From: Patescibacteria group bacterium
Lineage (GTDB): Bacteria; Patescibacteriota; Patescibacteriia; UBA2591; UBA6264
Length of the DNA: 44,371 nucleotides
Assembly: GCA_016784145.1 (NCBI GenBank)
Contig: JADHVF010000002.1
Location: forward strand, 178,357 to 222,727
Direction: 5' to 3'
The translations under genes and the position numbers were made by a program. Within the stretch, counting starts at the first letter, position 1. The number at the start of each line of letters is the position of its first letter. The notes beneath the pieces are model-generated. The model saw only the letters and a list, made by a program, of their open reading frames with translations, did no database searches and was not told the origin of the DNA. This document shows, one piece after another, positions 6,543 to 44,355 of this stretch.

Positions 6543-7736
6543 ATGGAATTAAAAACAATCAAGCAAATAAAAGATTTGAAAAATAAGCAGGTTTTATTAA
6601 GAGTTGATTTTAATTGCCCCATGGAGAATGATCAAATAATTGATGACACTCGTATTAAATTGGTGTTGCCAACTATTCAATATTTAATTAAAAAACAAGC
6701 CAAAGTAATTTTGATTAGTCATTTAGGTCGTCCAAAGAAGCATTCTCAATCTTCCTTATCTTTAAAACCATTTTATAATTACTTAGTAGCAATGTTTTCA
6801 AAACAAGAAGTGGGGTTTGTTAATGATTGCCTTGGAAAGAAAGTTATTAAAGAGGTAAGCAAGTTAAAGGCAGGGAATGTTCTTTTGTTAGAAAATCTCC
6901 GTTTTTATAAACAAGAACAAGCTAATGAGGTTGATTTTGCTAGACAGCTGGCTAAATTGGCAGATATTTATATTAATGATGCCTTTTCTGTTTCTCATCG
7001 ACAGCATGCTTCTGTTTCATCTATAACCAATTTTTTGCCAAGTTATGCCGGACTATTAATTAACAAGGAAATAAAAATTTTAACAGCTGTTTTAAAAAGC
7101 AAAGCACATCCTTTTGTGGTTTTAATGGGTGGTCAAAAAATATCAACTAAAATTAGCACTATAAAAAATTTATTAAACTTGGCTGATTCAGTTTTAATTG
7201 GCGGGGCTTTGGTTAATAATTTTTTAAAAGCTAAAACATATAATATAGGCAGTTCAATTTATGAAGCCAAAATGTTAACTGTTTGCAATGAGTTAAATAA
7301 TCATAAAAAAATTATTACTCCAGTAGATTTTAAGGCGTGGTTAAATAATTCTTCTCAAAGCAAGTTATTAGAATTAGATGAATTAAATAGTTTCAATAAT
7401 GATTTTGATATTTTAGACATAGGGGATAAAACCATTGACCTGTTCTCAAAACATATTAAAAATGCTAAAATAATAATCTGGAATGGGCCCATGGGGAAAT
7501 TTGAAAACAAGAATTTTTCTAGAGGAACTAAATTAATTGCTCAGGAAATTTTTAATAATAAACAAGCTCGGATAATTATTGGTGGGGGAGATATAATCAG
7601 GGCAATTTCTTCTTTGATTACTGATTTTGATAAATTGCCAGCTAATGTATTTTTATCTACTGGTGGCGGAGCAATGTTAAAGTTTTTGTCAGGGGAAAGC
7701 TTGCCAGGAATTAAGCCATTATTATTCAATAAATAA
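6543..7736 (+). CDS. pgk: Phosphoglycerate kinase
   Basis: 397 aa with RVDFNCP, ISHLGRPK, LLENLRF, and GGGD/STGGGA near the C-terminus. Confidence 0.9.
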   Translation: MELKTIKQIKDLKNKQVLLRVDFNCPMENDQIIDDTRIKLVLPTIQYLIKKQAKVILISHLGRPKKHSQSSLSLKPFYNYLVAMFSKQEVGFVNDCLGKKVIKEVSKLKAGNVLLLENLRFYKQEQANEVDFARQLAKLADIYINDAFSVSHRQHASVSSITNFLPSYAGLLINKEIKILTAVLKSKAHPFVVLMGGQKISTKISTIKNLLNLADSVLIGGALVNNFLKAKTYNIGSSIYEAKMLTVCNELNNHKKIITPVDFKAWLNNSSQSKLLELDELNSFNNDFDILDIGDKTIDLFSKHIKNAKIIIWNGPMGKFENKNFSRGTKLIAQEIFNNKQARIIIGGGDIIRAISSLITDFDKLPANVFLSTGGGAMLKFLSGESLPGIKPLLFNK

Positions 7737-7757: not shown

Positions 7758-9035
7758 ATGTCTAAAATAAAAAAAGTTTTTGCTCGAGAGATATTGGATT
7801 CTCGAGGAAACCCAACCATTGAAACAAAAATAATATTAGACAATGGGGTTGAGGCCAAGGCAGCCGTGCCATCTGGCGCCTCAAAAGGAAAATACGAAGC
7901 ATTGGAATTGAGAGATAATGACCCTAATCGTTACTCAGGCAGAGGAGTTTTAAATGCTTGTAGCAATGTAATGGGCAGAATAGCCAATACCATTGTGGGG
8001 GGAACAGCAGAAATTCAATCAATGGATGAGACCATGTTGGCTCTTGATGGAACAAATAATAAAAGCAAATTAGGAGCTAATGCTATTTTGTCTGTTTCTT
8101 TGGCAATTGCTAGAGTTTGCGCCAAGGATGCTAATTTGCCTTTGTATGAATATCTTAGAAAAACATATAAAATACATTCTGAAAAATACAAAATGCCAGT
8201 ACCAATGTTCAATGTTATTAATGGTGGCAAACATTCTGATTCAGGGCTGGATATTCAAGAGTTTTTAATTATTCCAATGGGAGGAGATAGTTTTAAGGAT
8301 AGGGTTTTAATCGGGGTTGATATTTTTTCAGCTTTAAGAGATATTTTAAAAAGCAAAGAATTGACTTTTGCGGTTGGTGATGAAGGCGGTTTTGCTCCTA
8401 AACTAAAAAATACTAAAAAAGTTTTTGATTTATTGGCTAGAATTTCAGAATTCACCGAGCATTCGTTAGGCAAGGAAGTATTTTTTGGCATAGATGCAGC
8501 TGCTTCTGTTTTTTATGACACACACAAGAAGAGATATTTGTTTGAGAATAAAAAACGTTCTAGTGATGATATGTTAAAGTTTTACAGAAAATTGTTTAAA
8601 AAATATCCTATTTTTACAATTGAAGACCCGTTTGCTGAAGATGATTGGGATGTTTGGCCAAAATTAACAGCCAAAATTAAAGTTTTGAATGATGATTTTT
8701 TAGTGATTGGAGATGACTTGTTTGGCACAAATATAAAGAGATTGCAAAGAGGGATAGATAATAAAGTAGCTAATGCAATTTTAATTAAGCCAAATCAAAT
8801 AGGGAGTGTTACAGAAACAATGAAATGCATTAGCTTGGCTCAGGATAATAATTATAAGATTGTTATTTCTCATCGTTCTGGAGAAACAAATGATGATTTT
8901 ATAGCTGATTTAGCTGTGGCAGTTGGGGCTGATTTTATTAAAACAGGCGCTCCTAATAGAGGAGAAAGAGTGGCTAAATATAATCGATTAATGGAAATAG
9001 AGACAGAACTTATAAGTAGTCAACAAATTCTATAG
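7758..9035 (+). CDS. eno: Enolase
   Basis: 425 aa with AREILDSRGNPTIE, PSGASKG, IKPNQIGSVTET and SHRSGETNDDFIADLAV. Confidence 0.95.
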   Translation: MSKIKKVFAREILDSRGNPTIETKIILDNGVEAKAAVPSGASKGKYEALELRDNDPNRYSGRGVLNACSNVMGRIANTIVGGTAEIQSMDETMLALDGTNNKSKLGANAILSVSLAIARVCAKDANLPLYEYLRKTYKIHSEKYKMPVPMFNVINGGKHSDSGLDIQEFLIIPMGGDSFKDRVLIGVDIFSALRDILKSKELTFAVGDEGGFAPKLKNTKKVFDLLARISEFTEHSLGKEVFFGIDAAASVFYDTHKKRYLFENKKRSSDDMLKFYRKLFKKYPIFTIEDPFAEDDWDVWPKLTAKIKVLNDDFLVIGDDLFGTNIKRLQRGIDNKVANAILIKPNQIGSVTETMKCISLAQDNNYKIVISHRSGETNDDFIADLAVAVGADFIKTGAPNRGERVAKYNRLMEIETELISSQQIL

Positions 9036-9050
9036 TAATTTTGTAAATTA

Positions 9051-10646
9051 ATGATAAATAAATCCAAGACAAGACAATCTGTCATGTTAGTTATTCTTGA
9101 TGGGTGGGGAGTGGCCGAACCAAATCAAGGCAATGCTATTGAGTTAGCAAACACTCCTTTTTTTGATTTTTTGAAAAATAAATATCCATCCACAGAACTT
9201 TGCGCTCATGGCACTAGGGTTGGTTTACCCAAAAATCAAATAGGCAATTCAGAAGCAGGGCATTTGAATATAGGAGCAGGTAGAATAGTAGAGGATGACG
9301 CAGTTCAAATAAATAAAAGTATTAAAAACACCCGTTTTTTTAAAAATCCTGCTTTTGCTGAAGGCATCAGATATTTAAAAACCAATCAATCAAAAGTTCA
9401 TTTAATGGGGCTGATAACTGAAGAAAACAGTGCTCATTCTTCTCCAGAACATTGGCTGGCCATGATTAATCTTTTAAGAAAACAGAATATTAAAGAGGTA
9501 TTTCTTCATCTTTTTACTGATGGCAGGGATTCTCCACAACATCAAGCAGTCAAAATTTTAGAAAGGTTTGTTAAAGATTTTAAAGAAAATAATCATAATT
9601 CACATTTTAATAATAAAATAAAAGTTAGAATTGCTAGTGTTTGCGGGCGGTTTTATGCAATGGATAGAAAGAAAAAATGGGAGAGCACTGAACAAGCATA
9701 TGATTTATTAGTCTTGGGCAAGGGCAGAAAAGCCCGGACTGCTAAACAAGCAATTGTGCAGGCCTATAATAGAAATGAAACAGATGAATTTATTTCGCCC
9801 ACAGTAATAACTAACCATGTTAACAAGCCAGTTGCTTTAATAGATGATAATGATTTGGTTGTTTTCATGAACTTGCGTTCAGACAGGGCTAGAGAACTTT
9901 CCAAAGCATTTTGTCAGATAGAATTTAATAGCCAAAATCCAAATAGTTTTAAAAGAAAAAAAATAGTAGATGTTTTTTTTATAGCTTTAACTGATTTTGG
10001 TCCTGATTTAGGAGATATTAGAGTTGCTTATCCATCAATAGAAGTTAAGGATAGTTTACCAATTGCTTTAACTGGATTAACTCAGTTTTATATTGCTGAA
10101 ACAGAAAAATATGCTCATGTTACATTTTTCTTTAACGGAGGACATGCTGGCCAAGTAGCTAATGAAGAGCAAAAACTTATTCCATCTAAAGATGTTAAAA
10201 CCTATGATGTTGTGCCAAACATGAATTCAGATATTGTTTGTGATGAAATAATAAATAAAATTAAAGATGACCATCCTGATTTTATTGTTGTTAATTTTTG
10301 CGACCCAGACATGATAGGACATACAGGGAATTTGCAAGCAGGCATAAAAAGCATTGAACATCTTGATGTTGTTTTAAAAAAATTAGTTAAAAATAGTCAA
10401 GCAAATAATTATACTACCATTATTACGGCTGACCATGGCAATATAGAGAAAATGATAGACCTAGATACCAGTGAAATTCATACCAGTCACACGACAAATC
10501 CAGTACCATTTATTTTGGTTGATGAAAAATTCAAGACAATTAAATTAAGAAACAAGGGCAAGTTAAGTGATATTGCTCCGACTATTTTAGATATAATGAA
10601 GCAAGACAAACCAGCTAAAATGACTGGCAAAAGTTTGCTTATATAA
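9051..10646 (+). CDS. gpmI: 2,3-bisphosphoglycerate-independent phosphoglycerate mutase, paralog 1
   Basis: 531 aa with VILDGWG, GNSEAGHLNIGAGR (catalytic Ser), TDGRDSP, GRFYAMDRKKKWE, NLRSDRAREL, AETEKYAHVTFFFNGG, DPDMIGHTGN, TADHGN and HTTNPVPF. Confidence 0.85.
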   Translation: MINKSKTRQSVMLVILDGWGVAEPNQGNAIELANTPFFDFLKNKYPSTELCAHGTRVGLPKNQIGNSEAGHLNIGAGRIVEDDAVQINKSIKNTRFFKNPAFAEGIRYLKTNQSKVHLMGLITEENSAHSSPEHWLAMINLLRKQNIKEVFLHLFTDGRDSPQHQAVKILERFVKDFKENNHNSHFNNKIKVRIASVCGRFYAMDRKKKWESTEQAYDLLVLGKGRKARTAKQAIVQAYNRNETDEFISPTVITNHVNKPVALIDDNDLVVFMNLRSDRARELSKAFCQIEFNSQNPNSFKRKKIVDVFFIALTDFGPDLGDIRVAYPSIEVKDSLPIALTGLTQFYIAETEKYAHVTFFFNGGHAGQVANEEQKLIPSKDVKTYDVVPNMNSDIVCDEIINKIKDDHPDFIVVNFCDPDMIGHTGNLQAGIKSIEHLDVVLKKLVKNSQANNYTTIITADHGNIEKMIDLDTSEIHTSHTTNPVPFILVDEKFKTIKLRNKGKLSDIAPTILDIMKQDKPAKMTGKSLLI

Positions 10647-10655
10647 ATAAAAATT

Positions 10656-12239
10656 ATGATAACCAATTCTAATAAAATAAAACCAGTAGTTTTAATCATA
10701 TTAGATGGATTTGGGGTTGCTCCTCCTAGTCAAGGAAATGCAATCTCTTTAGCTAAAATGCCAGTTTTTAATCAATTAGTAAATGCTTATCCGTCCATGG
10801 TTATTCAGTCTTCAGGAGAGGCAGTTGGGCTTAGTTGGGGAGAGCCGGGAAATTCAGAAGTGGGACATCTTAACATAGGGGCTGGTAAAATTGTTTGGCA
10901 AAGCTTGCCCATGATTAACCAAGCAATCATTGATAATAGTTTTTTCAGCAATAAAGAATTTTTACAAGCAATTAATCATGCTAAAGAAAATAATTCAGAC
11001 CTTCATTTAATGGGGCTTATTTCTAATGGCAATATTCATTCTTCTTTAAACCATCTTTATGCTCTTTTAGAAATGGCTAAAAAAAATAACTTTACCAGAG
11101 TATATATCCATGCTATTTTAGATGGACGAGATAGTCCTAGAGATTCAGCCCAGAGATTTATTAACGATGTTTTAGATAAAATAAAATCAATTGGCGTGGG
11201 ACAGATTGCTACTTTATCAGGCAGGTTTTGGGCAATGGATAGAGACAATAGATGGGATAGAATAGAGGTTTCTTATTTGGCAATAGTTAAAGGGTTGGCA
11301 GAAAAAGAATACACAGACCCTTTGAAAGCAATTCAAGAGTCGTATAAACAAGAAGTTTACGACGAGCAATTAAAGCCAGTTGTTATTAAAAAAGAGATTA
11401 ACCAGGAGTCATTTAAAATAAAAGATAATGATGCAGTTATATTTTTTAATTTTAGAGCAGACAGGGCCAGAGAATTAACCAGGGCATTAGTTTTAGATGA
11501 TTTTAAACAATTTAAAACAATTAAAATAAAAAATTTATTTTTTTGCACCATGACAGAATATGAGCAGGATTTGCCAGTAAAAATTGCTTTTCCATCTGTT
11601 AGGATTGAAAATCCATTAGCAAAAGTAATCAGTGATAAGGGGCTAAAACAAATGCATATTGCTGAAACAGAAAAATATGCTCATGTTACATTTTTTTTAA
11701 ACGGGGGAAGGGAACAGGCTTTTGATGGCGAAGACAGGAAATTAATTCCTTCACCAGGAATTTCATCTTATGACGCCAAGCCAGCTATGTCAGCTTATGA
11801 AATTCTTCATCAAGCGCTTTTTTCTATTGATAGTCAAAAATATAAGTTTGTGGCAATTAATTTTGCTAACCCAGACATGGTCTCCCATACTGGAAATTTA
11901 CCTGCCACCATAGAAGCATTGGAATCATTAGATGAAATTCTGGGACAAATTGTAGATATTTCTTTAAAAAATAATACAGCTGTTTTGATTACGTCTGACC
12001 ATGGCAATGCAGAAGTTTTAGTTAATCTAAGGACAGGAGAGATAGACAAAGAACATAATAATAATCCAGTCCCACTTATTATTATTGATAATAGTTTAAA
12101 AAAAGAAGATGCTTTATTGAGCCAAGTAGACCTAAATACAATGACACCTAGTGGTGTTTTGGCAGATATTGCTCCTACAATATTAAAAATAATGGGCATT
12201 GATAAACCAGATGAAATGACTGGCACGCCTTTAATATAA
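10656..12239 (+). CDS. gpmI: 2,3-bisphosphoglycerate-independent phosphoglycerate mutase, paralog 2
   Basis: 527 aa with ILDGFG, GNSEVGHLNIGAGK, LDGRDSP, GRFWAMDRDNRWDR, NFRADRAREL, AETEKYAHVTFFLNGG, NPDMVSHTGN, TSDHGN and HNNNPVPL. It is closer to the canonical iPGM consensus than paralog 1. Confidence 0.85.
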   Translation: MITNSNKIKPVVLIILDGFGVAPPSQGNAISLAKMPVFNQLVNAYPSMVIQSSGEAVGLSWGEPGNSEVGHLNIGAGKIVWQSLPMINQAIIDNSFFSNKEFLQAINHAKENNSDLHLMGLISNGNIHSSLNHLYALLEMAKKNNFTRVYIHAILDGRDSPRDSAQRFINDVLDKIKSIGVGQIATLSGRFWAMDRDNRWDRIEVSYLAIVKGLAEKEYTDPLKAIQESYKQEVYDEQLKPVVIKKEINQESFKIKDNDAVIFFNFRADRARELTRALVLDDFKQFKTIKIKNLFFCTMTEYEQDLPVKIAFPSVRIENPLAKVISDKGLKQMHIAETEKYAHVTFFLNGGREQAFDGEDRKLIPSPGISSYDAKPAMSAYEILHQALFSIDSQKYKFVAINFANPDMVSHTGNLPATIEALESLDEILGQIVDISLKNNTAVLITSDHGNAEVLVNLRTGEIDKEHNNNPVPLIIIDNSLKKEDALLSQVDLNTMTPSGVLADIAPTILKIMGIDKPDEMTGTPLI

Positions 12240-12620: not shown

Positions 12621-15389
12621 ATGTCTTTTATATCTAAATATTTTAAAAATCCAAACGAAAAAGAATTAGACAATCTCAATCCAATGGTTGAGGAGATTAA
12701 TGCTCTTGAATCAGATTTTGCTAAATTGTCTAACAAAGAACTGCTTGCTAAAACGAATCAATTAAAAGAAAAACTAAAAGCAGGGCAATCATTGGATAGT
12801 ATTTTGCCTTTTGCTTTTGCTTTAGTTAGACAAGCGAGTAAAAAAACTTTAGACCAAAGACATTATAATGTTCAATTAGTTGGGGGAATTGCTCTTCATC
12901 AAGGGAAAGTGATTGAAATGAAAACAGGAGAAGGAAAAACATTAGCAGCTACTTTAGCTGTTTTTTTAAATGCATTGGCGGGCAAAGGTGTTCACGTGAT
13001 AACAGTAAATGATTATTTGTCAAAAAGAGATGTGATTTGGATGGGGCAGATTTATCATGCTTTAGGCATGAGTGTGAGTTGTATTGTTCATGAATCAGCC
13101 TTTATTTATGACCCCTTGTATCTGAAAGAGGAAAATGATTTAGATAGAGACAAACAAAGAGATGAAATGGGAGGATTTAAGATAGAAGAATCATATCTTA
13201 GGCCGGTTTCTAGAAAACAGGCCTATTTGGCTGATATTACTTATGGTACTAATAACGAGTTTGGTTTTGACTATTTAAGAGATAATTTAGTTCAAGCTGA
13301 ATCAGAGTTGTCTCAAAGAGAATTAAATTATGCTGTTATTGATGAAGTTGATAGTATTTTAATAGATGAAGCTAGAACGCCTCTTATTATTTCTGCTAAA
13401 GCAGAAGAATCAGCTGATTTGTATCAAAAATTATCCATTTTAATCAAGGCCTTAACGTCTGGCAAGGAATATGTTGTAGACGAAGAATTGAGAGCTGTCA
13501 CATTGACAGAACAAGGAATGAATAAGTTATCAGAGACCCTTGGTAAGGATCCTTGGGAGAATAATGATTTTAATTTAATTCATCACATTGATGTGGCTTT
13601 AAAGGCAATGGTTCTTTTTCAAAAAGATAGAGATTATGTTATTAAAAAAGGAGAAATTATTATTGTTGATGAGTTTACAGGGAGGTTAATGGTTGGCAGA
13701 AGATATTCAGAAGGCCTACATCAAGCTATTGAAGCCAAAGAAGGAGTTAGTATAAAAGAAGAATCAAAAACACTGGCTACGGTTAGTTTTCAAAATTATT
13801 TTAGATATTATAAAAAATTAGCTGGCATGACAGGCACGGCTTTAACAGAGGCAGAAGAGTTTGATAAAATTTATAAACTTGAAGTTTTGGCTGTACCAAC
13901 TCATAAACAAAGAAAAAGAGATGATTTAGCAGATGTTATTTATAGAACAAATCAGGCAAAATTAGCAGCAGTTATTCAGGATGTTAAAGAAAGGAATAAG
14001 CAAGGGCAACCAATTTTAATTGGCACGGGTGGATTTGCAATTGGAGAAAAGACAGTTGGGGCGATAGAGAAGAATAGAATTATTAAAGATATGTTAACCA
14101 AAGAGGGGATATCAGCCAATGTTTTAGATGCCACTAATCATAAAAAAGAGGGAGAAATTATTGCTCAAGCAGGTAGGGTTGGAGCAGTTACAGTGGCCAC
14201 TAATATGGCTGGGAGAGGAGTAGATATTGTTTTAGGGGGAAATCCTATTGAACCTGATGCCCAGCAAAAGGTAATAGAATTAGGAGGACTTCATATTATT
14301 GGAACCGAAAGACATGAGGCTAGGAGAATAGACAACCAGTTACGAGGCAGGGCTGGCCGACAAGGGGACCCAGGTTCTTCACAATTTTTTATTTCTCTTG
14401 AAGATGACTTAATGCGTATTTTTGGAGGCAGTCGTTTAGCAGGCCTAATGGAAGGATTAAAAATGCCAGTTGATATGCCAATTGAAAGCAAGCTTGTTTC
14501 TAAATCAATAGAATCAGCCCAAAAAAAAGTAGAAGGATTTAATTTTGATACTAGAAAACATTTATTAGAATATGACGATGTTTTAAACAAGCATAGAGAG
14601 ACAATTTATTCTAAAAGAAAGCTAATTTTAAAAATGAAGCACGATGAAATTAAATCAGCCATTTTAAAAATTGTTAAGACAGAGATAGGTATTATTGTTA
14701 ATGGTCATTTTCCTAAACAAAATAATTATATTGAAGAAACTAAATTAAATGATTTTATACAACAAACAAATATTGCTATTAATTCTATTTTTCGCACAGA
14801 AAACAATATTATAAATGAACTTAAAAGTATTTGTAAATCAATTTTAGGCAATACTAGGCAAATATCTATTAAAAAAACAATTCAGACAAAAGAGAAAATA
14901 ATAGAATATTTATCCACGCAGGCCATGGAGGCTTTTAATAATTTAGAAGAAAATATTAAAGCTTCATTAAAAGACAAGCAAGAGGAAATAATGACTAAAA
15001 TTTGGCGTTCGCTTTGGTTGCAGAACATTGATAGAAGTTGGATTAATCATTTAGAAATAATTGATAATTTAAAAGGAGGAATTGGGCTAAGAGCTTATGG
15101 GCAGAGAGATCCATTAATAGAATATAAAGGAGAATCTTTTAAAAAGTTTAATCAGCTTTTAAAAGAAATAGACAAACAAATAGTATATTCTGTTTATAAA
15201 ATTGGACCAACAGCCAAAGTTCATAGCGCTTCTATTAAAGAATTGAATTTACAGGGAGCTCCTAAAACAACTGTTAAAAAACAAATTGAGTTTAAGAGAC
15301 AAACAGGCACTAAAATAGGGCGAAATGATATTTGTTTATGTGGCTCTGGCAAGAAATATAAAAAATGTTGTTATCCAAAATATGATTAA
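12621..15389 (+). CDS. secA: Preprotein translocase ATPase SecA
   Basis: 922 aa with Walker A (MKTGEGKTL), the DEAD-like IDEVDSILIDEARTPLIIS, TNMAGRGVDI, IGTERHEARRIDNQLRGRAGRQGDPG and a C-terminal zinc motif (CLCGSGKKYKKCC). Confidence 0.95.
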   Translation: MSFISKYFKNPNEKELDNLNPMVEEINALESDFAKLSNKELLAKTNQLKEKLKAGQSLDSILPFAFALVRQASKKTLDQRHYNVQLVGGIALHQGKVIEMKTGEGKTLAATLAVFLNALAGKGVHVITVNDYLSKRDVIWMGQIYHALGMSVSCIVHESAFIYDPLYLKEENDLDRDKQRDEMGGFKIEESYLRPVSRKQAYLADITYGTNNEFGFDYLRDNLVQAESELSQRELNYAVIDEVDSILIDEARTPLIISAKAEESADLYQKLSILIKALTSGKEYVVDEELRAVTLTEQGMNKLSETLGKDPWENNDFNLIHHIDVALKAMVLFQKDRDYVIKKGEIIIVDEFTGRLMVGRRYSEGLHQAIEAKEGVSIKEESKTLATVSFQNYFRYYKKLAGMTGTALTEAEEFDKIYKLEVLAVPTHKQRKRDDLADVIYRTNQAKLAAVIQDVKERNKQGQPILIGTGGFAIGEKTVGAIEKNRIIKDMLTKEGISANVLDATNHKKEGEIIAQAGRVGAVTVATNMAGRGVDIVLGGNPIEPDAQQKVIELGGLHIIGTERHEARRIDNQLRGRAGRQGDPGSSQFFISLEDDLMRIFGGSRLAGLMEGLKMPVDMPIESKLVSKSIESAQKKVEGFNFDTRKHLLEYDDVLNKHRETIYSKRKLILKMKHDEIKSAILKIVKTEIGIIVNGHFPKQNNYIEETKLNDFIQQTNIAINSIFRTENNIINELKSICKSILGNTRQISIKKTIQTKEKIIEYLSTQAMEAFNNLEENIKASLKDKQEEIMTKIWRSLWLQNIDRSWINHLEIIDNLKGGIGLRAYGQRDPLIEYKGESFKKFNQLLKEIDKQIVYSVYKIGPTAKVHSASIKELNLQGAPKTTVKKQIEFKRQTGTKIGRNDICLCGSGKKYKKCCYPKYD

Positions 15390-15445: not shown

Positions 15446-17074
15446 ATGGAAAGAAATAAAATTTGGACAATTTTTGTTTTTATCATCGCTTTAGCTGTTT
15501 TATCTTTACTAATTGATATTCCTCAGTTGCCAGAATGGGTGCCAGGGAATAAGTGGTTTTCAAAACAAAAGATTCATTTAGGATTGGACTTGCAAGGAGG
15601 AGCTCAGTTAACCTATCAAATGAATCTTGATGATATCCCAAGCAAGGACAGGGCTTCTTCTATTGATGGTGTTAGAGATGTTATTGAACGGCGGGTTAAT
15701 GTCTGGGGAGTGTCAGAGCCAGTTGTACAAACAGCTAATGTAGGTAATTCTTGGAGATTACTGGTTGAGTTGCCAGGCATCAAAGATGTTAACAAGGCAA
15801 TTGCTATGATTGGAGAAACTCCTATTTTGGAATTCAAGGAGCAAGCACCAGTTAAAGAAATTACGGCAGAAGAAAAACAAGCAGTAAAAAATTTTAATGA
15901 AGAAGTTAAAGTCAAAGCAGACCAAGCATTAGTTATGGCTTTAAAAGGAGAACAAGAATTTTCAGAATTAGTAGCCGAGTTTTCTCAAGAGCCAGGCGCA
16001 GATGAAAACAAGGGAGTGCTTGATTGGTTTAAAAAAGGAGTCATGTTGCCGGAATTTGAAAAAGTTGTTTTCGAAGATTTGAAAGTTGGAGAGATTACAC
16101 AAGAGTTAGTAGAAACACAATTTGGATATCATATTATTAAAAAAATTGATGAAAGAACAAATGAAGATGGAGAATTAGAAGCAAAAGCTAGTCATATTTT
16201 GTTTTTTATTCAATCAGAGCAAACAATGATTAAGCAGCCAGAATGGAATTATACAGGGTTAACAGGCAAACAATTAAAAAGAGCTTATGTTACCTTTAAT
16301 TCGCAAACAAATGATCCAGAAATTTCTTTAGAGTTTAATAAACAAGGAACAAAATTATTTGGTGAAATTACAACTAGAAACGTTGATAAACCAGTTGCTA
16401 TTTTCCTTGATAATATTCCTTTAAGTATTCCAACAGTTAGAGAACCAATTACCACGGGCATGGCAGTGATTACAGGGAAATTTGCCTTAAAAGAAGCAAA
16501 GCAATTATCACAACGATTGGTGGCAGGTGCTTTGCCAGTTCCAATAGAATTGATTGGTCAACAGAACATAGGTCCTAGTTTGGGAAAAATTTCTGTCCAA
16601 GAAAGTTTTGTGGCTTGTTTGTTAGGTTTTTTGATTATTATAATTTTCATGATTTCTTTTTACAGATTTAGGGGATTGTTGGCTAGTTTTGCCTTGCTTA
16701 TTTATGCTTTAATTGTAATGGCTTTGTTTAAGTTAATCCCAGTCACTCTTACTTTAGCTGGAGTAGCTGGTTTTATTTTGTCTTTAGGCATGGCAGTTGA
16801 TGCTAATATTTTAATATTTGAACGATTAAAAGATGAGGAACGTATTGGCAAGCATATTTTTGCTGCTATAGATGACGGGGTTGCTCATGCTTGGACAGCT
16901 ATTAGGGATAGCAATATTACAACTTTAATTGTTTGTTTTATTCTTTATAGTTTTGGGACAGGTTTGGTAAAAGGATTTGGATTAACCCTTGGCATTGGTG
17001 TTTTGGTTAGCATGTTTACAGCTATTGTTGTCACAAAAACATTTTTAAAATTAACAGCTCGAGAACATGATTAA
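15446..17074 (+). CDS. secD: Protein translocase subunit SecD with inserted parvulin-type PPIase domain
   Basis: 542 aa. N-terminal TM segment, LGLDLQGG, P1 base ([24 protein letters not shown]), a C-terminal 6-TM SecD/F core (GPSLG..[27 protein letters not shown]). Residues ~140-256 match the PpiC/Par10 rotamase domain (see finding). Confidence 0.9.
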   Translation: [542 protein letters not shown]

Positions 17075-17945
17075 TTTTGTTAAACATAAACAAATATTTT
17101 TTTATTTTTCAGGAACTCTTTTATTGATTTCTGTCTTATCTTTGTTTTCTTTTGGTCTTAACTTAGGAATTGATTTTCTAGGGGGCAGCATGTTAGAAAT
17201 AAAATACTTAGAAGAAAGTCCAACCGTGGATGAAGTTAGAGACAAGGTGGCTGATTTTGATGATTTAGGAGAGATTAAAATTCAAGCAACTAAAAATAAT
17301 GGATTTATTTTAAGATTCAAAAATATAGACCAACAAACACATCAAGACATGCTGGACAAATTAGGAAAAGTAGAAGAACAAAGATTTGAATCAATTGGCC
17401 CGGTGATTGGAGAGCAGGCAGCTAAAAATGCTAGATGGGCAATAACGCTTGCTTTGCTAGCTGTTATTCTTTATGTGGCATGGGCTTTTAGAAAATTAGC
17501 CAGGATTTCTAGTAAAAAAGAATCATGGAAATATGGAGCCGGAGCTTTATTGGCTTTATTTCATGATGTTTTAATCTTGTTAGGGTTTTTTGCTATTTTT
17601 AATCATTTTAATTCCTCGGAAATAAACATAGATTTTATAATAGCAATTTTGACTGTTTTGGGTTATTCGATTAATGATACAATTGTTATTTATGACAGGA
17701 TAAGAGAGAATTTATTGTCATTTAAGTTTAAGCATATGGCCGAAGCAATTAATTCATCCTTAAATGAAACAATTGTTCGGTCATTAAATACATCTTTAAC
17801 AACTTTGTTGGTTTTATTAGTTCTTTATCTTTTTGGGGGAGAATCAATGAAGAATTTTGTTTTAGCAATGATGGTCGGGATTGGCATTGGGACATATTCT
17901 TCAATTGCCATTGCTAGTCAATTTTTATTATTTAAAAGAAAGTAA
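17067..17945 (+). CDS. secF: Protein translocase subunit SecF
   Basis: 292 aa with GIDFLGGS, and a 6-TM core containing LGYSINDTIVIYDRIREN. It overlaps the secD stop by 8 nt. Confidence 0.9.
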   Translation: MINFVKHKQIFFYFSGTLLLISVLSLFSFGLNLGIDFLGGSMLEIKYLEESPTVDEVRDKVADFDDLGEIKIQATKNNGFILRFKNIDQQTHQDMLDKLGKVEEQRFESIGPVIGEQAAKNARWAITLALLAVILYVAWAFRKLARISSKKESWKYGAGALLALFHDVLILLGFFAIFNHFNSSEINIDFIIAILTVLGYSINDTIVIYDRIRENLLSFKFKHMAEAINSSLNETIVRSLNTSLTTLLVLLVLYLFGGESMKNFVLAMMVGIGIGTYSSIAIASQFLLFKRK

Positions 17946-41980: not shown

Positions 41981-42054
41981 TCCGGGGTCGTCTAATGGCA
42001 GGACGTCAGGTTTTGGTCCTGAAAATTGGGGTTCGAGTCCCTGCTCCGGAGCCA
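41981..42054 (+). tRNA. tRNA-Gln (anticodon UUG), CCA encoded
   Basis: Acceptor TCCGGGG/CTCCGGA with the U1-A72 pair and G73 discriminator typical of bacterial tRNA-Gln. D arm GTCT-AATGGCA-GGAC, anticodon arm TCAGG-TTTTGGT-CCTGA, T loop TTCGAGT. Confidence 0.85.
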
Positions 42055-42273: not shown

Positions 42274-44355
42274 ATGAAAGCAACTGAAATAAAATTAATA
42301 GATTTTCTTAAAAAATCGCCCCAGTTTGTTATTCCTATTTACCAACGTACTTATAGTTGGAACGAGAAGCAGTGTTTACATTTATGGGAGGATATTTTGC
42401 GTACAGGGAGTAACAAAAATATTGCCGCGCATTTTATTGGCTCTATCGTTTATGTAGAAAAGGGCCTTTATTCTGTTGCGGGTCAATCACAACTTCTTGT
42501 GATTGATGGTCAACAAAGACTTACCACAATAACTTTACTAATTGAGGCACTTGCCCGCACTCTCAGAGGAAGTGAGCCGATAGAAGGATTCTCAGAAAAA
42601 GTGCTTCGTGATTATTACCTTCTCGATCCGCGTGAAGAAGGAGAAAAGAAGTATAAACTCATTTTATCTCAAACTGATAAAGCGTCATTAACAGCATTGC
42701 TTGATAACAGTCCTGAGCCGAAAGATTATTCTGTACGAATTAAAAAAAATTTTGAATTTTTTATAGATAAAATCGATGAAGAGAAAAATAACCTTGCGTC
42801 GATATGCAAAGGCTTAGCAAAGCTTATTATTGTAGACATATCTCTTAGTCGTGATCAGGATAATCCTCAACTCATCTTTGAAAGCTTAAACTCGACAGGA
42901 CTTGAGCTAAGCCAGGCAGATTTGATTCGTAATTATATTTTAATGGGATTAGAGCCCGAGCTTCAGTTTAAATTGTACAACCAATATTGGCGACCGATGG
43001 AAATAGATTTTGGCCAGAAGGGTTACGCCTCATACTTTGATCGTTTTATGCGACATTATCTTACCGTGAAGACAAGTGTTATTCCTAAAGAGCGCGAGGT
43101 ATACGAGGTATTTAAACAATACGCGCATTCCCAAAAAGATGCGGGGGTTGAAGTTCTTGTCGCTGATATTCGAGTTTTTGCTGAATATTATTGTGCCATG
43201 GTTCTTGGTACTGAAACCGATTCAGAGCTAAAAATGGCCTTTCATGACTTTCTAGAGTTAAAGGCAGATGTTGCATTTCCATTCTTGTTAGAGCTTTATC
43301 ATGATTATGATAAGAAAAATCTTTCTGCGCATGAGTTGCTAAAAATAGTGCGCCTGATAGAGAGTTATGTATTCAGGCGCGCCATATGTAGTATACCAAC
43401 CAACTCGATGAATAAGACTTTTAGCACCTTTTCTCGTAATCTCAAAAAGGATCGCTATTTAGAGAGCGTGCAAGCAACATTTCTACTTCTTCCATCTTAT
43501 AGGCGTTTCCCTGATAATGAAGAGTTCAAACGAGAAATTAAGCTTAAGAATGTTTATAACTTCCGTAGTCGGAGTTATTGGTTGCGCCGATTAGAAAATT
43601 ATGAAAGAAAAGAACGCGTACCTGTAGTCGAGTATACTATTGAGCACATTATGCCACAAAATGAAAATCTATCAGCTGAGTGGAAATCAGAGCTTGGGTC
43701 TGAGTGGGAACGTATTCAAAACACTTATCTGCATACATTGGGCAATCTCACTCTAACCGGCTATAACTCTGAATATAGCGATAGGCCGTTTATGGAAAAA
43801 CGAAATATGAAAGGAGGCTTTGCGGAAAGCCCATTACGATTGAATAAAGGGGTTGCTGAAAAAGAACATTGGACTGAACAAGAAATATTAAATCGAGCAG
43901 AGGTATTATCGGAACAGGCAACCAAGGTTTGGTTTGCCCCCACATTGGAACGTAGTATTTTAGATGCATACAAACCGAAGGCAGAAGTGACAGAGTATAG
44001 CATAGAAGACCATCCTTATCTATCAACAGAGCCCACGAGAGGTTTATTTGAAGAATTTCGTAAACAGGTTAAAGCACTAGATCCGTGTGTAACTGAGACA
44101 TTTTTAAAACAGTATGTAGCATATAAGATGGAAACTAATTTTGTTGACGTTGTTCCTCAGGCAAAGCGATTACGTCTTTTGTTGAACATTGCATTTTCGG
44201 AAATTAATGATCCAAGGGGAATTTGTAGAGATGTCTCAGCGATTGGTCGATGGGGTAACGGCGATGTCGATGTCGGCCTTTCAGTGATCGAGGACATGGC
44301 TTATGTTATTGGATTGGTTCGTCAAGCATTTGAGAAGCAAATGGGAAATGGATAA
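42274..44355 (+). CDS. DUF262/DUF1524 two-domain nuclease, GmrSD-like (type IV modification-dependent restriction family) with an extra C-terminal domain
   Basis: 693 aa. The N-terminal DUF262/ParB-like NTPase signature is IPIYQRTYSW.., FIGSIV, VIDGQQRLTT and FESLNSTGLELSQADLIRNY. The C-terminal His-Me finger (DUF1524) signature is YTIEHIMPQN....LHTLGNLTLTGYNSEYSD. The last ~120 aa form a separate module. Confidence 0.8.
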   Translation: MKATEIKLIDFLKKSPQFVIPIYQRTYSWNEKQCLHLWEDILRTGSNKNIAAHFIGSIVYVEKGLYSVAGQSQLLVIDGQQRLTTITLLIEALARTLRGSEPIEGFSEKVLRDYYLLDPREEGEKKYKLILSQTDKASLTALLDNSPEPKDYSVRIKKNFEFFIDKIDEEKNNLASICKGLAKLIIVDISLSRDQDNPQLIFESLNSTGLELSQADLIRNYILMGLEPELQFKLYNQYWRPMEIDFGQKGYASYFDRFMRHYLTVKTSVIPKEREVYEVFKQYAHSQKDAGVEVLVADIRVFAEYYCAMVLGTETDSELKMAFHDFLELKADVAFPFLLELYHDYDKKNLSAHELLKIVRLIESYVFRRAICSIPTNSMNKTFSTFSRNLKKDRYLESVQATFLLLPSYRRFPDNEEFKREIKLKNVYNFRSRSYWLRRLENYERKERVPVVEYTIEHIMPQNENLSAEWKSELGSEWERIQNTYLHTLGNLTLTGYNSEYSDRPFMEKRNMKGGFAESPLRLNKGVAEKEHWTEQEILNRAEVLSEQATKVWFAPTLERSILDAYKPKAEVTEYSIEDHPYLSTEPTRGLFEEFRKQVKALDPCVTETFLKQYVAYKMETNFVDVVPQAKRLRLLLNIAFSEINDPRGICRDVSAIGRWGNGDVDVGLSVIEDMAYVIGLVRQAFEKQMGNG

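Follow-up and report, generated by a model that had tools for sequence, protein, structure and literature searches.

SecD of a Patescibacteria bacterium carries an inserted parvulin domain of probably permuted strand order

Introduction

Why does a subunit of a secretion motor carry a folding enzyme in the middle of its chain? The question is raised by the secD gene (positions 15446 to 17074) of a Patescibacteria group bacterium, a member of the Candidate Phyla Radiation (CPR). The gene lies in a 44,371-nucleotide stretch of contig JADHVF010000002.1 (assembly GCA_016784145.1), which we analyzed as a whole and refer to as the window; all features described below are numbered from its first letter, and those of the sec genes are on the forward strand. 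A first-pass annotation of the window, made from the sequence without database searches, had proposed that the 542-residue SecD protein contains an inserted parvulin (PpiC-type) peptidyl-prolyl isomerase (PPIase) domain, and that the strands of this domain are circularly permuted.

How a secreted chain is handed over from SecYEG to folding helpers is still an open problem, and the proposed contacts of Escherichia coli PpiD and SurA with the periplasmic domains of SecDF are weak and hard to trap. In the current view, the P1 domain of SecDF binds a chain as it emerges and shifts it clear of the pore (PMC6028853). Contacts have been described between PpiD and the periplasmic domain of SecD (PMC9643414), SurA is recruited via the periplasmic domains of SecDF (PMC9987972), and a Mycoplasma parvulin lipoprotein, Mpn444, cross-links to SecD (bioRxiv 10.1101/2024.09.05.611430).

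Results

A parvulin domain lies between the P1 base and the P1 head

A parvulin-type PPIase domain is present in full where the P1 base of SecD joins the P1 head. In Pfam searches with the whole protein, Rotamase_3 (PF13616) matched residues 131-236 with an E value of 6.1e-20 (72.4 bits against a cutoff of 22.5), and Rotamase (PF00639) matched residues 146-234 with an E value of 2e-18 (67.6 bits against a cutoff of 21.7). The first-pass assignment of residues 140-256 (15863 to 16213) to a parvulin insert was thus borne out. The same searches found no match in SecD to a SurA_N-family domain, the flanking domain of the PrsA/SurA/PpiD type. E. coli Par10 (1jns) matched SecD residues 162-234 (E value of 1.1e-5), and parvulins of the PrsA type matched the insert better than Par10 did, with E values of 4e-10 for 2m08 and 1.4e-9 for Bacillus subtilis PrsA (4wo7).

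Alignment with Thermus SecDF (3aqp; E value of 1.4e-75) located the insertion within the host protein. Thermus residues 26-117 and 146-424 aligned with SecD residues 31-132 and 258-536, and SecD residues 133-257 were left without any aligned Thermus residue. This gap places ∼100 extra residues precisely at the passage from the P1-base strand ILEFKE to the P1 head, which, together with the order of the Pfam domains, agrees with the position given in the annotation. The motif positions noted there were also correct (ILEFKE at residue 127, GYHIIKK at 227, ASHILFF at 248, and VAIFLD at 317). We delimited the inserted domain, in its permuted order, to residues 134-257 (15845 to 16216). An AlphaFold2 (AF2) model of the isolated domain (residues 134-260) had a predicted local distance difference test score (pLDDT) of 93.4 and a predicted template modeling score (pTM) of 0.85. 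When this model was searched with Foldseek, the best match was a solved periplasmic PPIase (8hm3/8hm4; E value of 6e-7, template modeling score of 0.73, root mean square deviation of 1.9 Å over 109 columns).

Judged from its sequence, the gene encodes SecD, one of the two separately encoded subunits of a proton-driven SecD/SecF secretion motor. It forms one uninterrupted open reading frame (ORF), which scores 367.5 bits with the curated NCBIfam model TIGR01129 (secD), whose cutoff is 244.4, and covers model positions 1-397 of 397. The order of P1 base, P1 head, and C-terminal SecD_SecF transmembrane domain was recovered with Pfam, with the AF2 model, and with Foldseek, the last of which matched the full SecD model to 5yhf and 3aqp at E values of 1e-24 to 1e-21 and also to 5xan. 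The N-terminal part of the P1 base (15665 to 15844; residues 74-133) corresponds to Pfam SecD_1st and ends in strand 128-133 (ILEFKE), and it aligns with Thermus SecDF up to residue 117 of the latter. Then come the two overlapping rotamase matches, followed by the P1 head (16229 to 16543; residues 262-366), which matched SecDF_P1_head over residues 271-365 (E value of 4e-26) and where the Thermus alignment resumes at residue 146. The C-terminal transmembrane bundle (16544 to 17059; residues 367-538) contains the AVDAN motif, matched SecD_SecF_C over residues 368-536, and has helices in the stretch 381-541 of the AF2 model. Asp452 in the sequence GMAVDAN aligned with GAAVDGN of Thermus SecDF and was invariant in 117 of 117 homologs; we take this position to be the conserved transmembrane aspartate of the SecDF proton path.

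The protein therefore shares with the SecDF proteins of Thermus thermophilus (3AQP and 5YHF) and Deinococcus (5XAN) an N-terminal transmembrane helix, the P1 base, the P1 head, a C-terminal transmembrane bundle, and the AVD(A/G)N motif. It differs from Thermus SecDF in that SecD and SecF are encoded by separate genes, and in that the Thermus connector of ∼28 residues (118-145) is replaced by the parvulin domain of ∼125 residues. The gene for the partner subunit, secF (17067 to 17945; 292 residues), starts within the last 8 nucleotides of secD, and secA (12621 to 15389; 922 residues) lies immediately upstream, so that secD stands within a sec gene cluster. In contigs that carry the identical SecD, the neighboring products matched the SecA Pfam families and, for SecF, Sec_GG and SecD_SecF_C.

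The first strand of the parvulin fold very probably comes last

Parvulins of canonical order run β1-α1-3-β2-α4-β3-β4. The SecD insert departs from this order, with β1 placed after β4, and from profiles and models we consider it very probable that the domain is circularly permuted. As a circular permutant of the fold, it would belong to the parvulins by homology and not by topology.

The profile evidence concerned both ends of the domain. In the native order, the Rotamase match started only at position 10 of 97, which indicates that the β1 part is missing upstream of the core. In a construct with residues 243-258 placed before residues 134-240, positions 1-96 were matched with a small gain in score, from 72.1 to 73.8 bits, and the solved parvulins 2jzv, 2lj4, and 1j6y aligned straight across the new junction. 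A family profile in the permuted order aligned with Pin1 residues 54-162 in one stretch (profile positions 3-117), from around H59 almost to the C terminus, whereas the profile in the native order aligned with Pin1 residues 74-162 only. The moved segment, KASHILFF, aligned with the N-terminal β1 of PrsA1 (6xd8; PEIKASHILVK), 2m08 (NKIKCSHILV), and B. subtilis PrsA (1zk6; KIRASHILVA). A hidden Markov model (HMM) built from the SecD strand after β4 alone found the β1 ahead of the core in ∼25 ordinary tandem-parvulin proteins. Conversely, when the best 150 representatives of clusters at 50% identity were scanned with HMMs of the separate parts, a His strand before the first core was found in no SecD of this sample.

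The AF2 models gave a consistent picture. In the full-length model (pLDDT of 80.8), strand 128-133 runs straight into helix 141-167 with no strand between them, and the domain closes with two long strands, 227-238 and 244-254, joined by a 5-residue loop. In the isolated-domain model, from which all SecD strands are absent, residues 244-254 still form a strand, in a block with a pLDDT of 97-98, and β2 (residues 191-196) is still a strand as well. We take the sheet order of canonical parvulins to be 2-1-4-3, as in the structures of Par10 and Par14, so that β2 pairs only with β1.

The elements of the domain can thus be assigned as follows. The long helix α1 (15866 to 15946; residues 141-167) was delimited by DSSP in both models and corresponds to helix 8-34 of the domain model. 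Strand β4 (16124 to 16159; residues 227-238) bears the second catalytic histidine, H229 (codon 16130 to 16132), and its GYHIIKK motif aligns with GYHIIK of PrsA and Par10 and with H157 of Pin1. The loop that follows (16160 to 16174; residues 239-243) was delimited by DSSP, varies in length in the family, and is the site of the second parvulin in the double-insert SecDs described below. The relocated strand β1 (16175 to 16207; residues 244-254, 11 residues) bears the first catalytic histidine, H250 (codon 16193 to 16195), and was assigned by conservation, by the alignment to N-terminal β1 strands, and by AF2. The spacing between H229 and H250 varied from 15 to 45 residues across the 117 homologs, a spread that suits a connecting loop whose length is variable.

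The absence of a strand ahead of the domain and the position of β1 with the first catalytic histidine after β4 are as the first-pass annotation had stated. Its 12-residue linker did not hold up, for most of that segment is strand in the models; with the loop confined to residues 239-243, β4 and the relocated strand follow one another as long strands, which fits a hairpin. The P1-base strand ILEFKE was also considered as the parvulin β1 and was rejected, since it has no histidine, belongs to the SecD_1st profile, and is dispensable for the fold of the isolated domain in the model.

The structure returned by Foldseek, 8hm3/8hm4, is a Bacteroides fragilis periplasmic PPIase and a target of BfUbb. 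Its profile alignments extend ∼14 to 20 residues beyond β4, and it may share the permuted strand order.

Catalytic and pocket residues are nearly invariant

Both conserved histidines of the parvulins, which stand on neighboring strands and are H59 and H157 in Pin1, are present in the insert as H250 and H229. Together with Phe204, they were invariant in all 117 homologs. The other active-site positions were conserved in most of these proteins (Asp182 in 115, Met200 in 105, and Leu192 in 103), and A248, S249, I251, and L252 around the first histidine were each conserved in at least 92%. SecD of the window keeps both histidines, Phe204, Met200, Leu192, and Ser180, with L192, M200, and F204 forming the pocket that corresponds to L122, M130, and F134 of Pin1. 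Position 182, the equivalent of Pin1 C113, where parvulins have Asp or Cys, is Glu in the window SecD. Within the single-insert family, the catalytic and pocket residues hardly vary, which speaks for an active foldase; the inserted domain most likely catalyzes prolyl isomerization.

The fusion is widespread in Patescibacteria

Fourteen contigs from at least 5 samples encode the identical 542-residue protein, and in each of them its gene is flanked by secA and secF. The best 120 homologs, the most distant of which is 54% identical, all combine Rotamase with SecD Pfam domains; their sources label them only as "protein translocase subunit SecD," and the named ones come from Patescibacteria. In a scan of one genome per species, at least 561 relatives were found among the 600 pattern matches listed, and the best 80 of these all cover the entire junction of base, parvulin, and head, which places the fusion in at least 80 species-representative Patescibacteria genomes. 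The record titles of fusion carriers name Buchanan-, Kerfeld-, Kuenen-, Falkow-, Magasanik-, Komeili-, Veblen-, Nomura-, and Moranbacteria. Among the cluster representatives, 19 clusters matched the junction at an E value of 1e-30 or better, and classification of the best 150 with the part HMMs gave 44 clusters of SecDs with a single insert and 22 with a double insert.

Two side observations concern this sample. Many of the fusion-bearing species-representative metagenome-assembled genomes are titled "uncultured Gammaproteobacteria bacterium" (third-party annotation records; loci L001-L003, L007, L009, L010, and others); these titles are probably wrong labels of mislabeled bins. In a 229-residue SecD fragment (P0261) with 67% identity over its best stretch (the first 44 query residues), only 18 residues separate the P1 base from the P1 head, which shows that SecDs lacking the insertion occur among fairly close relatives.

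Some SecDs contain a second parvulin

The 22 double-insert clusters comprise longer SecDs of 650 to 700 residues with two parvulin cores in P1 (P0122, P0132, P0133, P0141, P0142, P0155, P0160, P0167, P0199, and others). Their first core keeps the long helix of the SecD type (LTxEEKxxIxxxN...) and has lost the β4 histidine. It is followed by EVKASHILI and then by a canonical core with FGYHIIYK that clusters with tri-parvulin proteins of the HILIxYxGA...RTKEEA type. In the last strand before the P1 head, the histidine is mostly lost. Both histidines are thus kept together in one strand pair and lost together in the other. This sequence pattern suggests that a canonical, presumably active parvulin is nested in the connecting loop of a degenerate permuted parvulin, which itself lies within SecD.

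Stand-alone PrsA-like proteins share the permuted order

Several matches outside SecD showed the same order of core and then ASHIL strand. A search with one of these, P0238 (316 residues), led to a large family of stand-alone, membrane-anchored PrsA-like PPIases with SurA_N-type domains, which are annotated as "peptidylprolyl isomerase" or "foldase protein PrsA" and occur in Patescibacteria that include Kerfeld-, Falkow-, and Torokbacteria. In 113 of 120 such proteins (P0238 and P0271-P0389) the core is followed by an xASHILI strand, and a His strand before the core was found in none of the 120. The permutation is therefore not an adaptation specific to SecD. The first-pass remark that the permuted order suits insertion into a host loop may still be true, but since the stand-alone enzymes share the order, such a fit is not why the permutation exists. 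Its suggestion of a genome possibly devoid of PrsA or SurA found no support at the level of the lineage, where Kerfeld- and Falkowbacteria have both the fusion and stand-alone PrsA-like proteins. In the window itself, searching all six-frame ORFs with the family HMM gave no second parvulin (next-best match, E value of 0.44).

Mean core identity was 43% between the SecD inserts and the PrsA-like proteins and 32 to 38% between the SecD inserts and other parvulins, and in a rough neighbor-joining tree the SecD inserts and the PrsA-like cores each formed a cluster of their own. Among the relatives sampled, none is closer to the SecD insert than the PrsA-like core. From these similarities, the two modules probably share an origin.

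Among PDB sequences, the junction between P1 and P2 of E. coli SurA (1M5Y) gave the best colinear match to the segment of β4, linker, and β1 (E value of 2e-5), and the insert resembles the piece of a tandem array that runs from α1 of one unit to β1 of the next. In the SurA structure, the second strand of the P1-P2 segment belongs, we presume, to the next parvulin domain. SecD has no next core, so the relocated strand must complete the preceding one. Such colinearity would be expected of a permutant that descends from a tandem array whose first strand and last core were lost.

Other features of the window

The window has a G+C content of ∼30%. Upstream of the sec genes lie genes for phosphoglycerate kinase (6543 to 7736) and enolase (7758 to 9035), followed by two tandem paralogs of cofactor-independent phosphoglycerate mutase (9051 to 10646 and 10656 to 12239), each with iPGM_N and Metalloenzyme domains. 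A gene for a GmrSD-type restriction endonuclease (42274 to 44355; GmrSD_N, GmrSD_C, and DUF5655) follows tRNA-Gln (41981 to 42054) and occupies the only stretch of raised G+C content (0.37 compared to ∼0.30); it may have been acquired horizontally. Scans of the window for tRNAs and Rfam families detected four tRNAs only and nothing tied to secD.

Discussion

Taken together, these data are best explained by a permuted parvulin domain in SecD P1 that serves as a built-in foldase for emerging chains, and we regard this explanation as likely. The chain would enter the domain at α1, run through β2, α4, β3, and β4 (GYH229IIKK), turn in the 5-residue loop, and lay down the central strand β1 (KASH250ILFF) last, leaving beside the point of entry. 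With both ends adjacent, the domain could be inserted in a SecD loop without disturbing the P1 fold. By homology with SecDF, which upholds the orientation given in the first-pass annotation, it would lie on the trans side of the membrane, beside the substrate-binding P1 head and at the base of this mobile element. There it would bind the unfolded chain emerging from SecYEG and catalyze prolyl isomerization, and the chaperone hand-over that is performed elsewhere in trans by PpiD, SurA, or PrsA-like proteins would be built into SecD as a permanent association. The working model for the motor is presumably the same as for Thermus SecDF, with a P1 head that pulls the chain and is driven by the proton-motive force (PMC6028853). 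The data themselves establish the insertion, its site and conservation, the strand order read from profiles and models, and the constancy of the active-site residues in the family. We infer an outside-facing topology, catalytic activity, and cooperation of the insert with the movement of the P1 head; release driven by the proton-motive force would be coupled to isomerization, as the annotation had envisaged.

The insert shares with PrsA of Bacillus, Listeria, and Staphylococcus (1ZK6, 4WO7, 6XD8, and 2JZV) and with E. coli Par10/PpiC (1JNS) the parvulin fold and the motifs KASHIL (β1), SxD...GGDLGWF, MVxxFE, and FGYHIIK (β4). It differs from them in that β1 comes last instead of first, in that it is embedded in SecD and not in a SurA_N-type chaperone domain, and in the much longer α1 (27 residues). 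The stand-alone PrsA-like PPIases of Patescibacteria have the same permuted order, but have an N-terminal anchor and SurA_N-type helices (PF13624, PF13623, and PF09312) around the parvulin in place of SecD. In E. coli PpiD-YfgM, in SurA with the holo-translocon, and in Mycoplasma Mpn444, a parvulin chaperone likewise stands beside the periplasmic SecD domain at the SecYEG exit; these, however, are separate, noncovalent partners, whereas here the parvulin lies within the SecD chain and has no flanking chaperone domain. A search of the full-text literature, with subscription journals outside its coverage, found no paper that describes a parvulin fused to SecD or a circular permutation in any parvulin, the PrsA-like ones included. 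The architecture is visible in precomputed Pfam annotations, but has not been named there.

Several observations weigh against the reading of the insert as a permuted, active foldase. A naive hairpin register taken from the DSSP limits, with residue 238 opposite residue 244, puts the two histidines on opposite faces; a register shifted by one does not. At E values below 0.001, Foldseek with the domain model returned 8hm3/8hm4 only; PrsA1 (5htf) was matched weakly, and the small canonical parvulins were not returned. The full-length model had a pTM of 0.51, too low for a reliable prediction of how the domain is placed with respect to the P1 head. Finally, the window SecD is the sole member of the 117 with Glu182 and the sole one with Val191 (Asp in 101 of 117), and it reads KGVLDWF where the family consensus is GGDLGWF (residues 181-195 region, window 15986 to 16030). 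With these departures, catalysis may be weakened in the source organism, and the activity of this particular parvulin may thus be reduced.

The domain might also not be permuted at all; ASHILFF would then be the first strand of the P1 head, or a part of the P1 base, next to a truncated, three-stranded parvulin without β1. Pfam SecDF_P1_head was matched only from profile position 20, which leaves some N-terminal element of the head unassigned, and in the full-length model the relocated strand could in principle pair with SecD strands. Yet the strand falls within the segment that has no counterpart in Thermus SecDF, it remains a strand at a pLDDT of ∼97 in a model that contains no SecD strand, its motif equals the KASHILV of canonical β1, H250 is invariant among the homologs, and PrsA-like proteins without any SecD part have the same strand after the core. 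We therefore hold a truncated, unpermuted domain to be highly improbable. Practically negligible is the chance that the fusion is an artefact of assembly, frameshift, or gene calling that joined a parvulin gene to secD; SecD sequence stands on both sides of the insert in one frame, and both the 14 identical contigs and hundreds of homologs show the same arrangement.

The remaining alternatives concern function. The insert could be a noncatalytic module, at least in the source organism, that holds emerging chains or docks a partner; it would then resemble what we take to be inactive parvulin domains, that of E. coli PpiD or P1 of SurA. The departures in the active site of the window SecD speak for such a role, as does the outer permuted domain of the double-insert SecDs, whose retention despite the loss of both histidines means that a noncatalytic role for the permuted module exists in the SecD family. 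Set against this, the whole catalytic set is nearly invariant in the single-insert family, which points to selection on catalysis, the window SecD keeps both histidines and the residues listed with them above, and the exchange of Asp for Glu at position 182 is conservative. We judge a purely noncatalytic insert to be unlikely, if worth keeping in mind. The domain could also act on the motor, as a hinge-located brake or sensor governing how the P1 head swings between its conformations, with the parvulin fold as a structural module. Its location exactly at the connection of base and head and the survival of the outer domain without catalytic residues in the double-insert forms would suit this role; nothing positive was found in its support, and the conservation of the pocket and catalytic residues in the single-insert family, like the kinship with PrsA-like foldases, points to client proteins. 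This makes an action on the motor improbable.

We thus retain the permuted, most likely catalytic foldase as the preferred explanation. A wider picture, which we offer tentatively and regard as plausible rather than probable, would extend it to the phylum. Throughout Patescibacteria, the permuted parvulin would be the standard extracytoplasmic foldase, one copy of which would have been covalently built into the SecDF hinge, where swings of the P1 head, driven by the proton-motive force, would feed emerging chains straight to an active isomerase, and a canonical parvulin would later have been nested in the hairpin loop of a sister class of SecDs.

A natural covalent fusion of SecD and a parvulin in many species is independent evidence, of the "Rosetta stone" kind, for a functional partnership between the two, and it offers a stable object for structural work on chaperone hand-over. 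It also presents what is very probably a natural circular permutation in the parvulin fold, and the SecDs in which one parvulin seems nested in another may reveal the route to rearrangements of this kind. For the bacteria themselves, the fusion adds to the picture of how secretion is organized in the minimal genomes of the CPR.

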